A stretch of 64,000 nucleotides of DNA from a virus (lineage: Duplodnaviria; Heunggongvirae; Uroviricota; Caudoviricetes). Positions 38,650-49,567 of the stretch are shown in pieces. The stretch is from the IMG/VR virus record IMGVR_UViG_3300037312_000757; one strand, 5' to 3'. The notes under the pieces are model-generated. The model was not told where the DNA came from. It was given only the letters and a program-made list of their open reading frames with translations, and searched no databases. How positions within the stretch are numbered: position 1 is the stretch's first letter; each line of letters begins with the position of its first letter. Position numbers and translations under genes: made by a program.

Positions 38650-39170
38650 CCAGGTTCACGGAGTGCTATATCAGGACTAATGGTCTGAACCCGTCGTCCG
38701 TCTTTGACGTACATAGCACCAGGCGCTCCTGTAATTTCACACGTTCGTGCTGACATGCTTGCTGCCATGTTAATAGCACCTATGCAAAATTCATCTACAG
38801 AAAATGTTGGATAGACTGTCAATGTGCCGAACTTTTCTTTGATAGTACCGAACTCAGGATACCTTGGCTCAGTCCTCATTTCCTTGAAATTCTTGAAATC
38901 ATTAAATTCAAGGACACGACGTTCAAGCACATTTGACACATTTGAAAAATCAAGTGTCACACAAGCATTGCGACCAGCTAACCAATACTCGTAACTGCTT
39001 TGCACGTAATCAGCATGGCGTTGGATGGCTTCACACATTGAATCAATGATGTTATACCATCCGTCACCGCATGCGATACCCGAATAGAACAAACTAGAAT
39101 TCCGATTGTCCTTCTGCACGAACAGCTTTGGATATCGTGCGTACAGCTGATTCTCCAGATATTCTTTCAT
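38628..39170 (-). CDS. Conserved phage hypothetical protein
   Basis: CGDGWY.II, IKEKFGTL, S..TCE.TG.PG. Confidence 0.75.
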   Translation of the reverse strand: MKEYLENQLYARYPKLFVQKDNRNSSLFYSGIACGDGWYNIIDSMCEAIQRHADYVQSSYEYWLAGRNACVTLDFSNVSNVLERRVLEFNDFKNFKEMRTEPRYPEFGTIKEKFGTLTVYPTFSVDEFCIGAINMAASMSARTCEITGAPGAMYVKDGRRVQTISPDIALREPGWVRYKE

Positions 39171-40063
39171 CGGTACTTCGTCACGAGTCGTTCCAGTTCA
39201 GCAACCAACTTGTCAGCCTTATTGGGCTCAGCTACTGCATTACTGAGGTTGCCGTAATGCTCTTCCAAGCAATTGACAAGCAAGTTCTTCAATGCGTCTT
39301 CGTCTGGGGTGTGGCGCAAAGTGCTTGACACATACAGTCCTTCAAGCTGTCGATGCTTGTCTTCAGCCCACTGATCTAGCTGCGCAAGTGTCCACTCACC
39401 ACGACGAATAGCCTTCAGCTGTTCGCGATTCTGTTCGATGTTGAGGTCACCAGTCATCAAGATCTGTTCGCACTCATCAAGCAGACGCACAACGTGGTAA
39501 GCAAATTTCACGTCAAAGCCGTATGCTTCAATAGAAGCGGCCCGCTTCTCATTCTGAGCATTGGTCTTGTTCTTGATCTTGCTCATCTGAGCATATGCGT
39601 AACCCTTAAACTTGTGCCAGCAACCTTTGTGCAAGAATTCCTTACGTGCATCACGCACCATTTCGCCGATCTTGGTCGAATGCACAACGCAACGACGTGG
39701 TGTGAAGATGCTGTCGATCATGTTCGGGTTGTTTTCCATCAGCAACTGGAAATACTTCACAATGTTGTAGATCGTGATGTCGTATTCTCGACTTGTTTCC
39801 TTGTCGATGATGTGGTGATGCTGATATTGTTCGAATCCTGGTGGCAAATTCTTACCGAAGCCTGGCACATAACCAGCCAAATGCGGGAAGATCATTGTCT
39901 TCGGTGGGATGCAGAAGCCATAAACGTCACGATCGCTGTCGTCATTGCTAACACCATACGATTCCGATCCCATGATCGTTTCATACATGGTGTTGCTGAC
40001 TACAAATTGCGGGGCGTCGCTCAGAAGGTCTTTCTTGCGGAGGGTTTGTACGATGCTTGACAT
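39167..40063 (-). CDS. Pol-beta-superfamily nucleotidyltransferase (YcgL/RlaP-like)
   Basis: GSESYG....SDRD, NPN.I, FKGYA..Q, K.AYH..RL. Confidence 0.85.
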   Translation of the reverse strand: MSSIVQTLRKKDLLSDAPQFVVSNTMYETIMGSESYGVSNDDSDRDVYGFCIPPKTMIFPHLAGYVPGFGKNLPPGFEQYQHHHIIDKETSREYDITIYNIVKYFQLLMENNPNMIDSIFTPRRCVVHSTKIGEMVRDARKEFLHKGCWHKFKGYAYAQMSKIKNKTNAQNEKRAASIEAYGFDVKFAYHVVRLLDECEQILMTGDLNIEQNREQLKAIRRGEWTLAQLDQWAEDKHRQLEGLYVSSTLRHTPDEDALKNLLVNCLEEHYGNLSNAVAEPNKADKLVAELERLVTKYR

Positions 40064-41281: not shown

Positions 41282-41393
41282 CAGTCTCTCCTGTTCAATA
41301 TGTAGCCATTATTGGCTCATTTGAACGAATAATCAAGCGAAGAAAAAGCCCCTCGTTGAAGGGGCTTGTATTAGTATATCAGCTACCTACTGC

Positions 41394-41906
41394 TTAAACG
41401 TTGCCTTGAGACTTTGCAGCCAAGTAACGTTGTACTGCTTCGTTGTGGAGCGGGAACGCAAGGTCGTCAGCAAACGAAAGCTTCACCACCTCCAGTGTTT
41501 CGGGGCATGCAACGGCGGTTGCCAGCAATGCTTCATCCAGCGTTTCTGTGTAAATGCAGAACGACAGGATCTGGCCACCAGGTGTAGGTGCCGAATAGAA
41601 CTGATAGAACTTGTTTGCGTCAAGCTTGATGCCGCTTTCTTCGAGAATCTCACGGGCGACCGTTTCTTCGATGCTTTCGCCCTTCTCGCTAAAACCACCC
41701 ATCAGCGCTCGTTTGCCATAGCCGTAACCCTTGATGCCACGAACGCCGCCAAGCAAGCCATCGCCCATCGGGACAATACCAACACCAACTACATTCGGCG
41801 AATCGTAGACTTCACGCTTGCATGCTTCGTTGACACAAACACGGGGGAATGTTTCGACTTGGGTGTACTTTGTACCGCAGTGATGGCAAAAATTGAAAGC
41901 TGGCAT
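41394..41906 (-). CDS. NUDIX hydrolase with N-terminal zinc ribbon
   Basis: FCHHCG..C....C; GGFSEKGES..E.VAREILEESG Nudix box. Confidence 0.88.
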   Translation of the reverse strand: MPAFNFCHHCGTKYTQVETFPRVCVNEACKREVYDSPNVVGVGIVPMGDGLLGGVRGIKGYGYGKRALMGGFSEKGESIEETVAREILEESGIKLDANKFYQFYSAPTPGGQILSFCIYTETLDEALLATAVACPETLEVVKLSFADDLAFPLHNEAVQRYLAAKSQGNV

Positions 41907-41926: not shown

Positions 41927-42003
41927 TGGCGGTCCCTGTGGGATTCGAACCCACGACCCTTGGTTTTGAAGACCAGTGCTCTGACCGCTGGAGCTAAGGG
42001 ACC
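41927..42003 (-). tRNA. tRNA with anticodon UCA (opal suppressor, tRNA-Trp-like)
   Basis: GGTCCCT/AGGGACC acceptor, G73, encoded CCA, GCTC/GAGC D stem, loop CTTCAAA, TTCGAAT T loop, short variable loop. Confidence 0.9.
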
Positions 42004-42024: not shown

Positions 42025-42053
42025 TATTCTACTGCCATATGGCAGCAAGTCAA
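42025..42053 (-). promoter_or_regulatory. Promoter TTGACT-16-TAGAAT with a CTGCCATATGGCAG palindrome
   Basis: Read directly upstream of the tRNA. Confidence 0.65.
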
Positions 42054-45693: not shown

Positions 45694-45925
45694 TTTCTTG
45701 TTTTTCTGTTATTTGGTCACCAAATGCGAACAAGAACGCCATTGCTTCTAGTCGATCCTCTATTCTCCAAAAGTGGAATCGACCTGACTTCTTGTCGCGA
45801 CCTCTAAGCCATGTGGGTCTAATGGATAACTGTTCCACCGACTCACGTTTGATACGAGCCATTGCCTTGTGGAAGCTTTCACCGTCGCCGCCAAAAGGAG
45901 TCCGAACCTCGTATGTTATTGACAT
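45611..45925 (-). CDS. FKLxW-family small protein (dispersed copy)
   Basis: IEDRLEAMAFLFAF. Confidence 0.6.
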   Translation of the reverse strand: MSITYEVRTPFGGDGESFHKAMARIKRESVEQLSIRPTWLRGRDKKSGRFHFWRIEDRLEAMAFLFAFGDQITEKQENGDTNVSSIEKFVGKERSRSGNEERRT

Positions 45926-46356
45926 AGCGAGAACCTCTTGGTGATGTGATGAATTTCTGCTTTGCGAGCAGGACCGATACCCAGCGCAGTGATGATGGGT
46001 TCGCCTGTAAAAGCAGTGCCAGGGATGATGTGATGCTGATCGATAATCAGTTCACAGGGAATGCCAGCTTCCTTTGCGGCGTCGTACGCCTTCAGAATCG
46101 CGTCTTGGTTCTTGGCCTTCAGGCAGATTTTCGTGCCGATGCCGTCTCGCTGGTAAAAATCAGCGATATCAGGACGCTCTTTGAGAGCTTTGAGGTATGC
46201 ATTGAGATACGCGTGTCCGGCTTGTGCGGCAAGTTTGCCGGCAGACATGTTGAGATCGCCTCGCGTAATGGCGTAAAGACGATATGGGTCCTCTTCAGCT
46301 TCCGTTGCGGAATTCTGGAGGAACTCTTGCACTCAGCGATGGTCGAGATGATTCAT
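45916..46356 (-). CDS. pth2: Peptidyl-tRNA hydrolase Pth2 family; in-frame UGA at 46333-46335 (or GTG start at 46332)
   Basis: R.DL.MS.GKLAAQAGHA, K.CLK, IID, TALGIGP; best SD precedes ATG 46356. Confidence 0.85.
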
Positions 46357-46453
46357 TTCATTTGCTCCTTTTAGGGTTTCAGTTAGCTAGTGAAGATGTT
46401 TCACTAGAGATCATACTCTAGCATCGTACATCTTCACCGTGCAAATATTTATT

Positions 46454-48970: not shown

Positions 48971-49065
48971 GAACTTCTCCAGAGAGTTGAGATCCCCGTT
49001 ACCGGGACAAACAATTGTACAGAGCTGATCTGAAAGCGCAATACATGATTCATAGCCATCAATAC

Positions 49066-49092
49066 AAAAGGGCCACTTGCGTGGCCCTTTTG
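49066..49092 (-). terminator. Terminator after tmRNA
   Basis: AAAAGGGCCAC-GCAA-GTGGCCCTTTT. Confidence 0.75.
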
Positions 49093-49094
49093 GG

Positions 49095-49531
49095 TGTTTT
49101 CTGTTGCTAGGCATTTCCTGCCCCGGCATCGCTTAATCCCGAAGGATTAAGCAGCCATCGCAAAAACGTTGTCGTTTGCGGTTACTTCTTTTGTGCGCTT
49201 TACGAGCGTCACCTCAACGGATACCTCGTCTAATCTTTATTACCGCCCGTCGAAACCAGGTCGGGCCCATCAGGACAGTCCTCAGAGTACCAACGGGGTA
49301 AGCACTTTACGCCTTATCAGTGCGTCGCTTTGCCCAATTACCCCCAGTGTGAACCAGGGCGCTTGTGAGAGCTACAGCCTGCTTAGTTAGCAAGTGCTCT
49401 ACTAAAACTCTGTCATTCTGCACGCTTATCGCGAATCTGCTTGCATTCAGACCACAAAGACTGTTTTGGTGGACCCGGCGGGAATCGAACCCGCGTCCGA
49501 ACCGTCTATTCCATTAGATGTCAACAGCATC
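49095..49531 (-). ncRNA. ssrA: Circularly permuted (two-piece) tmRNA: acceptor piece ~49531-49467, intervening segment 49466-49269, coding piece from 49268; tag (A)ANDNVFAMAA at 49179-49147
   Basis: GGGCCCG/CGGGUCC-A-CCA stem with G3.U70, GGTTCGATTCC T arm, GGTTTCGACGGG 5' motif, ANDN..AA tag; the CCA end lies upstream of the 5' end. Confidence 0.92.
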
Positions 49532-49538
49532 AAAACAA

Positions 49539-49567
49539 ATGATAACGCAATTAGTTCACCGCGTCAA
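49539..49567 (-). promoter_or_regulatory. tmRNA promoter TTGACG-17-TATCAT
   Basis: Read from the sequence. Confidence 0.7.

Follow-up and report, generated by a model that had tools for sequence, protein, structure and literature searches.

The 64,000-nucleotide stretch of DNA analysed here (the window) belongs to a phage whose full virus record, hereafter G000, comprises 523,836 bp, has direct terminal repeats and a G+C content of 47%. It carries a tRNA gene with the anticodon UCA. On this strand, some 4.3 kb farther upstream, lies a gene of the PTH2 family (pth2), preceded by a Shine-Dalgarno sequence, an ATG and a short leader that ends in an in-frame stop. The features of the window considered below are the following:

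39167-40063: RlaP nucleotidyltransferase gene (Pfam)
41346-41367: terminator-like hairpin 3' of the NUDIX gene (terminator scan)
41394-41906, minus strand: NUDIX gene (Pfam), starting 20 nt 3' of the tRNA
41927-42003, minus strand: tRNA with anticodon UCA, opal suppressor type (ARAGORN, Rfam RF00005 and reading of the sequence)
42026-42053, minus strand: sigma-70-like promoter TTGACT-16-TAGAAT (promoter scan, 10/12)
45916-46332, minus strand: pth2 body, 138 codons from the GTG after the TGA (Pfam PTH2, PF01981, E 2.7e-25; alignment with six relatives)
46333-46356, minus strand: pth2 leader, made of the ATG, six codons (peptide MNHLDHR) and, at 46333-46335, an in-frame TGA that tRNA(UCA) is proposed to read
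46365-46370, minus strand: Shine-Dalgarno sequence AAGGAG of pth2, 8 nt 5' of the leader ATG (reading of the sequence)
49056-49559, minus strand: two-piece (permuted) tmRNA of the alphaproteobacterial type (ARAGORN; Rfam tmRNA_permuted 121 bits, alpha_tmRNA 96 bits)

According to Pth2 and other genes, the nearest cultured relatives are Agrobacterium phage Atu_ph07, whose Pth2 is 50% identical to that of this phage, and Sinorhizobium phage Phosso, so that an alphaproteobacterial host is likely. Comparisons were made with these two phages (L056 and L057, respectively) and with three further relatives: G001 (L004, 290 kb), G002 (L023, complete, 424 kb) and G003 (L055).

The tRNA(UCA) gene and its promoter

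ARAGORN identifies a single tRNA of 77 nt with anticodon tca at 41927-42003 on the minus strand, and this sequence scores 63.4 bits (E 2e-11) against the Rfam tRNA model, whose gathering score is 29. The acceptor stem has 7 bp (GGUCCCU/AGGGACC), and the D arm has a 4-bp stem and a 9-nt loop, with an additional C at the expected A14 site in the Rfam alignment. The anticodon arm is CUGGU-CUUCAAA-ACCAA, with a loop of 7 nt; a variable loop of 5 nt and a standard T arm with a 5-bp stem follow, and the gene encodes G73 and the terminal CCA. ARAGORN's label 'SeC' for this molecule derives from the anticodon alone. A tRNA-Sec is recognized by a long variable arm, an 8/5 acceptor/T stack and a 6-bp D stem, and we rejected this identity as both the long arm and the 8/5 layout are missing. 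Position 27:43 is a C.A mismatch that reduces the anticodon stem to 4 bp. A stem weakened by a mismatch at 27:43 or 31:39 recurs in 17 of 31 such tRNAs, which would fit a tuned decoding property.

The promoter is the top site in the 6.5 kb scanned and ends 22 nt 5' of the tRNA. Between its −35 and −10 hexamers, the spacer harbors a perfect 14-bp palindrome, CTGCCATATGGCAG (42032-42045, minus strand), with a single occurrence in the 524-kb genome; it could be an operator timing the expression of the tRNA. G001 keeps the hexamers, most of the palindrome (one change) and the order of the tRNA and NUDIX genes. The NUDIX gene, whose G001 counterpart is 81% identical, is probably on one transcript with tRNA(UCA). 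The original prediction, made from the letters of the sequence, had described this cloverleaf with its short variable loop unlike tRNA-Sec, the C.A mismatch with a 4-bp stem and a promoter belonging to the tRNA itself; all of these features are borne out, the promoter being conserved in L004.

The G001 copy of the tRNA (L004:9907-9982) is syntenic and lies behind the same promoter. The two molecules are about 68-76% identical. They have the loop CUUCAAA in common, their pairs 28:42 and 29:41 have changed compensatorily, and the G001 tRNA is likewise mismatched at 27:43 (G.A), with 1:72 inverted to C-G and A as discriminator. The retention of loop and promoter, together with compensatory stem changes at such a level of identity, argues for selection on tRNA(UCA) as a working tRNA. 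An exact-pattern search of IMG/VR for tRNA(UCA) returned no match.

The amino acid carried by this tRNA was considered from its relationships. The original prediction had noted a close likeness of the anticodon arm to that of E. coli tRNA-Trp, and any such likeness is confined to this arm: over the whole molecule, the closest E. coli match in a search of 5,426 genomes is a tRNA-Arg (71.6%), and the closest phage matches are the tRNA-Sup(CUA) of XacN1 (about 81%) and tRNA-Arg. We therefore do not class it with the bacterial tRNA-Trp, the more so as the G001 orthologue, with C1-G72 and A73, disfavors a fixed tryptophan identity. An arginine identity is likewise doubtful: A20 is part of the identity rules of E. 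coli ArgRS, and it is absent from the D loops of both copies.

The in-frame stop of pth2 and the anticodons of its relatives

The pth2 leader reads ATG AAT CAT CTC GAC CAT CGC TGA GTG and continues, with no shift, in the PTH2 frame. The complete gated frame extends over 45916-46356, with TGA as codon 8. In G001, the leader ATG AAA CAT CTC GAT CAT AGG TGA GTG keeps both the peptide (MKHLDHR) and the TGA, the arginine being retained despite the change from CGC to AGG; in both phages the TGA directly abuts the GTG. A GGAG is found at the equivalent place in L004, L023 and L057. Leader, codon after the stop and suppressor tRNA in the six named phages are as follows:

This phage (G000): leader stop TGA; next codon GTG; suppressor tRNA UCA
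G001: leader stop TGA; next codon GTG; suppressor tRNA UCA
Atu_ph07: leader MIGEHF-TGA; next codon ATT; suppressor tRNA UCA, plus a normal Trp(CCA)
G002: leader ATG AAA GAA TTG TAG; next codon GTT; suppressor tRNA CUA
G003: leader ATG AAC AAG CAA TAG; next codon GTT; suppressor tRNA CUA
Phosso: leader MKY-TAG; next codon GTT; CUA tRNA 4.6 kb away

[quoted passage not shown] In Atu_ph07, G002, G003 and Phosso, the sequence from the stop to the first beta strand contains no ATG, GTG or TTG, so that a complete Pth2 domain requires readthrough in these four phages. The deposited pth2 CDSs of Atu_ph07 (L056:6046-6378) and Phosso (L057:6076-6408) start at an internal Met that deletes the first beta strand, an annotation artefact caused by the in-frame stop. 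Conversely, pth2 has a plain ATG start in XacN1, Xoo-sp13, Kikimora, phiM12 and LR756500, which makes the lock a lineage-specific trait.

A profile scan of metagenome contigs provided 80 pth2 loci and, with the named phages, 85 loci were classified. The arrangement of a Shine-Dalgarno sequence with ATG, 1-15 codons, an in-frame stop and pth2 was found at 44 of them. No canonical start is present past the stop at 32 of these 44 in-frame loci, and a start codon immediately follows the stop at only four, which is no enrichment; GTT, ATT, GAA, GGT and others occupy this position among the relatives. Wherever a suppressor tRNA was in view, it matched the stop (21/21 loci: 18 TAG/CUA and three TGA/UCA), and it often lies 40-700 nt upstream of pth2. 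An apparent mismatch at L179 (TAG leader, ARAGORN 'tca') was set aside, the loop CAUCACG being devoid of U33. A quick Pth2 tree, built on few columns and with many open forks, places this phage and G001 within a TAG/TAGG clade (SH-aLRT 80-91) and Atu_ph07 as sister to the TAG clade containing Phosso. From these positions, the TGA/UCA state arose at least twice among TAG lineages, stop and tRNA being both switched each time. As far as sequences can tell, the tRNA is thus real and conserved, as is the in-frame stop, and the type of stop and the anticodon change together.

At another 25 loci, pth2 lies in the +1 frame after the leader stop and this frame is open. They include L108 (=G004), L109, L127, L128, L132, L135, L143, L148, L151, L153, L158, L159, L162-L164, L167, L175, L176, L180 and L182-L184. 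Over the 25 loci, the four-base site reads TAGC (14 loci), TAAC (four), TGAC (three), TAGG (two), TGAT (one) and TAGA (one). For L024, we considered an indel introduced by sequencing within a stretch of C residues, a reading dropped since the independent contig L109 has an identical +1 layout at TAGG. Where neighboring tRNAs are present, their 7-nt loop contains the four-base complement of the +1 site: GCUA for TAGC at five loci (four distinct tRNAs), CCUA for TAGG in G004, at a site syntenic with the tRNA(UCA) of the window, GUUA or AUUA for TAAC and UCUA for TAGA. ARAGORN labels these four-base short-arm tRNAs as Ser(gct), Arg(cct) or Asn(att); by their loops, they look like natural quadruplet decoders. 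One ARAGORN call in the tRNA cluster of G002 (G002:215231-215318) likewise has an anticodon of four bases (caca). About 9 nt past the +1 site (e.g., L155, L127 and L176), a conserved stretch ..CUCUUGCGAACGG is followed after 3-8 nt by GACCGCA and then by a hairpin with a covarying stem. As the CUCUUGCGAACGG stretch is kept across different reading frames, its conservation is at the RNA level, and an Rfam search with the conserved RNA behind the +1 sites matched no family; together with the hairpin, it may stimulate frameshifting. This class lies outside the present finding and supports a rule whereby pth2 would be unlocked by a dedicated tRNA in these phages.

Stop-codon usage and the search for other targets

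The phage uses the standard code. Under table 11, 90% of the genome lies within ORFs of at least 100 aa. Among the 858 crude gene calls, 341 end in TGA, as do 117 of the 368 genes of at least 150 aa. The median in-frame run after the stop is 14 codons for TGA, 10 for TAA and 15 for TAG; G000 shows no excess of in-frame extension after TGA relative to TAA or TAG, no TGA depletion and no back-up stops. TGA accounts for 32% of the stops in G000, the UCA phage, and 42% in G002, the CUA phage, and TAG for 7.6% and 5.2%, respectively, indicating that the cognate stop is not avoided. The coverage by ORFs, the use of stops and the length of the extensions behind them thus led us to reject genome-wide recoding (code 4), in agreement with the original prediction that UGA otherwise serves as a stop.

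Besides tRNA(UCA), the genome encodes 58 tRNAs for 19 amino acids, and tRNA-Trp(CCA) was not found in this set. Among the relatives, two Trp(CCA) genes are present in the CUA-carrying G002 and one in Atu_ph07. A search of the phage for a TrpRS gene gave no tRNA-synt_1b match, and a search for class I release factor genes gave a sole RF-1-domain match, in an ORF of 187 aa (G000:449777-450091) that is ArfB-like by length alone. With the tmRNA, whose tag is ANDNVFAMAA, the RlaP nucleotidyltransferase and a second pth2 paralogue (G000:444896-445297), ungated and with a plain ATG start, this ORF forms a set for translation rescue and RNA repair.

The original prediction had also proposed regulated partial readthrough of selected phage genes and a genome-wide scan for conserved in-frame UGAs. 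The proposal fits one target, the TGA of the pth2 leader, which is shared with G001 and backed by the covariation of stop and anticodon; no further gene was found. When G000 was compared with G001 and G002, no in-frame stop elsewhere proved to be both conserved and flanked by coding sequence on each side. Where an in-frame TGA in one of G000 and G001 faces a sense codon in the other, the inner matches are shadow frames, 5' over-extensions or unconserved post-stop sequence. At position ~154026 of G001 (in L014), a TGA is opposite a conserved Trp codon (TGG) of the G000 gene 149185-149559 and the next 30 residues are similar; a second readthrough site, a recent nonsense mutation and an assembly error are all candidate explanations. 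Only five matches place a G000 TGA and a G002 TAG in the same column, all junk-like, and the TGA-versus-TGA screen of G000 and G001 was too noisy to interpret apart from pth2. A generic scan of G000 for short leaders ending in a stop gave no TGA excess, and arrest-type R-x-P-P leaders with UGA were not found in this genome. The power of these screens is low where another gene has a short leader or is extended at its C terminus.

Function of tRNA(UCA) and comparison with known systems

These data lead us to propose that tRNA(UCA) is probably an opal suppressor, and that codon 8 of pth2, a UGA, is its principal and perhaps its sole programmed target. Ribosomes would initiate at the ATG behind the Shine-Dalgarno sequence of the seven-codon leader and reach the UGA with a very short nascent chain. 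There, either RF2 would terminate translation or the charged phage tRNA would insert an amino acid and let the ribosome enter the Pth2 frame, so that full-length Pth2 would be produced in step with tRNA(UCA). We infer that the tRNA is expressed and charged, that it outcompetes RF2 at the leader UGA and that the coupling is regulatory. Termination on very short nascent chains is slow, as described in the minigene literature. As a strong general suppressor would be costly in a genome where TGA ends about one-third of the genes, tRNA(UCA) is presumably a weak one that wins mainly at the early leader stop.

The same cost also weighs against a gated pth2, as do four other observations. The GTG adjacent to the stop in this phage means that termination and reinitiation could yield nearly the same protein with no tRNA involved. 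XacN1 has two CUA tRNAs, yet its pth2 starts at a plain ATG. The tRNA is distant from pth2, by 4.3 kb here and 230 kb in Atu_ph07, and few independent events, two switches, lie behind the comparison of six phages.

A more elaborate model, which we put forward tentatively and as possible rather than expected, is that the tRNA and pth2 constitute a self-contained translational switch. The stop would be placed at codons 4-8 since termination by release factors is inefficient while the nascent chain is very short; a weak suppressor, its anticodon stem loosened on purpose, would win there and leave ordinary stops nearly unaffected. The amount of Pth2 would then reflect how much of the phage tRNA is charged, and it would serve as a timer or, in a feed-forward manner, protect against peptidyl-tRNA drop-off while the phage takes over translation. 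The tRNA keys, whether triplet (UCA, CUA) or four-base (NCUA, NUUA), would be exchangeable forms of a single system.

Alternatively, tRNA(UCA) might be a general weak suppressor that lets ribosomes pass UGA at a low rate on numerous messages of the phage or the host, with extended proteins or host disturbance as the outcome and pth2 a bystander or one target of many. Such a role was proposed for the UCA tRNA of Atu_ph07 (Attai et al. 2018, PMC6102473). The number of TGA-ended gene calls exposes many sites to such a tRNA, and the tmRNA, the ArfB-like gene and the second Pth2 could handle run-on ribosomes. However, extensions after TGA are no longer than those after TAA or TAG, the G000/G001 and G000/G002 comparisons show no conserved post-stop coding, and the joint switching of pth2 stop and anticodon is left unexplained. 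We consider this explanation unlikely.

Still less probable is a translational coupling in which ribosomes terminate at the UGA and restart at the neighboring GTG to make Pth2, the tRNA having an unrelated role or none, for instance as a decoy for a host anticodon nuclease. The adjacency of TGA and GTG in both G000 and G001 would suit reinitiation, short upstream ORFs are common coupling devices, and the RNA-repair gene RlaP lies in the neighborhood. Against it, relatives with GTT, ATT, GAA, GGT or other codons after the stop have no start before the domain, start codons follow the stop in only four of the 44 loci, and the type of stop follows the anticodon. As to a decoy, cells have no UCA-anticodon tRNA apart from tRNA-Sec, and hence no ordinary tRNA for it to replace.

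Finally, we give very little credence to tRNA(UCA) being simply the tRNA-Trp of the phage, with U34 wobbling to UGG as in genetic code 4 and UGA reading as a side effect: it would fill the one gap in the tRNA set, its C35, A36 and G73 fit the identity rules of bacterial TrpRS and its anticodon arm was noted in the original prediction as tRNA-Trp-like, but the G001 orthologue has C1-G72 and A73, the syntenic CUA orthologues of G002 and G003 cannot read UGG, Trp(CCA) coexists with the UCA tRNA in Atu_ph07 and with the CUA suppressor in G002, and the body as a whole resembles suppressor and Arg tRNAs. The tryptophan identity to which the original prediction pointed is therefore not supported.

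Stop-reading tRNAs have been recorded in other phages. The UCA tRNA of Atu_ph07 was supposed to act on many targets, 'several potential genes' (Attai et al. 2018, PMC6102473), no targets were found for the CUA tRNAs of XacN1 (Yoshikawa et al. 2018, PMC5852040), and the CUA tRNA of Sinorhizobium phage AP-J-162 was reported as tRNA-Pyl (PMC11242549). Like the present phage, these are standard-code jumbo phages with large tRNA sets and one or two stop-reading tRNAs. Whereas these papers name no target, we propose here the stop of the pth2 leader, which covaries with the anticodon even in Atu_ph07. In recoded phages such as crAss-like and Lak phages (TAG to Gln, TGA to Trp), a phage suppressor tRNA similarly overrides a host stop; however, in-frame stops interrupt many genes, often late ones, and that codon has mostly ceased to act as a terminator (Borges et al., 10.1101/2021.08.26.457843), whereas here about one-third of the genes end in TGA and a single early site was found.

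The arrangement is also reminiscent of prfB, the RF2 gene, in that a translation-factor gene has an early in-frame stop behind a short leader with a Shine-Dalgarno sequence and competition with the release factor sets the outcome. In prfB, however, the ribosome and tRNAs of the cell perform a +1 frameshift and the gene senses its own product, whereas the passage here would be in frame and depend on a dedicated trans-acting tRNA; feedback through Pth2 is conjecture. The Hirsh suppressor, a UCA derivative of E. coli tRNA-Trp, and the 27:43 mutants of Schultz and Yarus are said to show that a UCA anticodon or an altered body enables UGA reading, and the tRNA-Trp of Blastocrithidia reportedly has a 4-bp stem, a weakened anticodon stem being linked to relaxed decoding. 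The laboratory opal suppressors and the Blastocrithidia molecule are natural or mutant tRNA-Trp; by contrast, the body of tRNA(UCA) is not that of a tRNA-Trp, and relatives of this molecule have changed to CUA. A full-text literature search returned no paper linking suppressor tRNA, peptidyl-tRNA hydrolase, in-frame stop and phage.

Stop-reading tRNAs have been reported in standard-code phages for years, their purpose not being known, and a conserved target makes this puzzle testable. The experiment is feasible now with the cultured relatives Atu_ph07 in Agrobacterium and Phosso in Sinorhizobium. For annotation, the in-frame leader stop explains the truncated pth2 genes described in these two phages. 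If confirmed, the module would represent a natural case of a single gene switched on by a dedicated suppressor tRNA, and these phages would offer natural, orthogonal-looking pairs of tRNA and stop site, including apparent four-base decoders, for genetic-code engineering.
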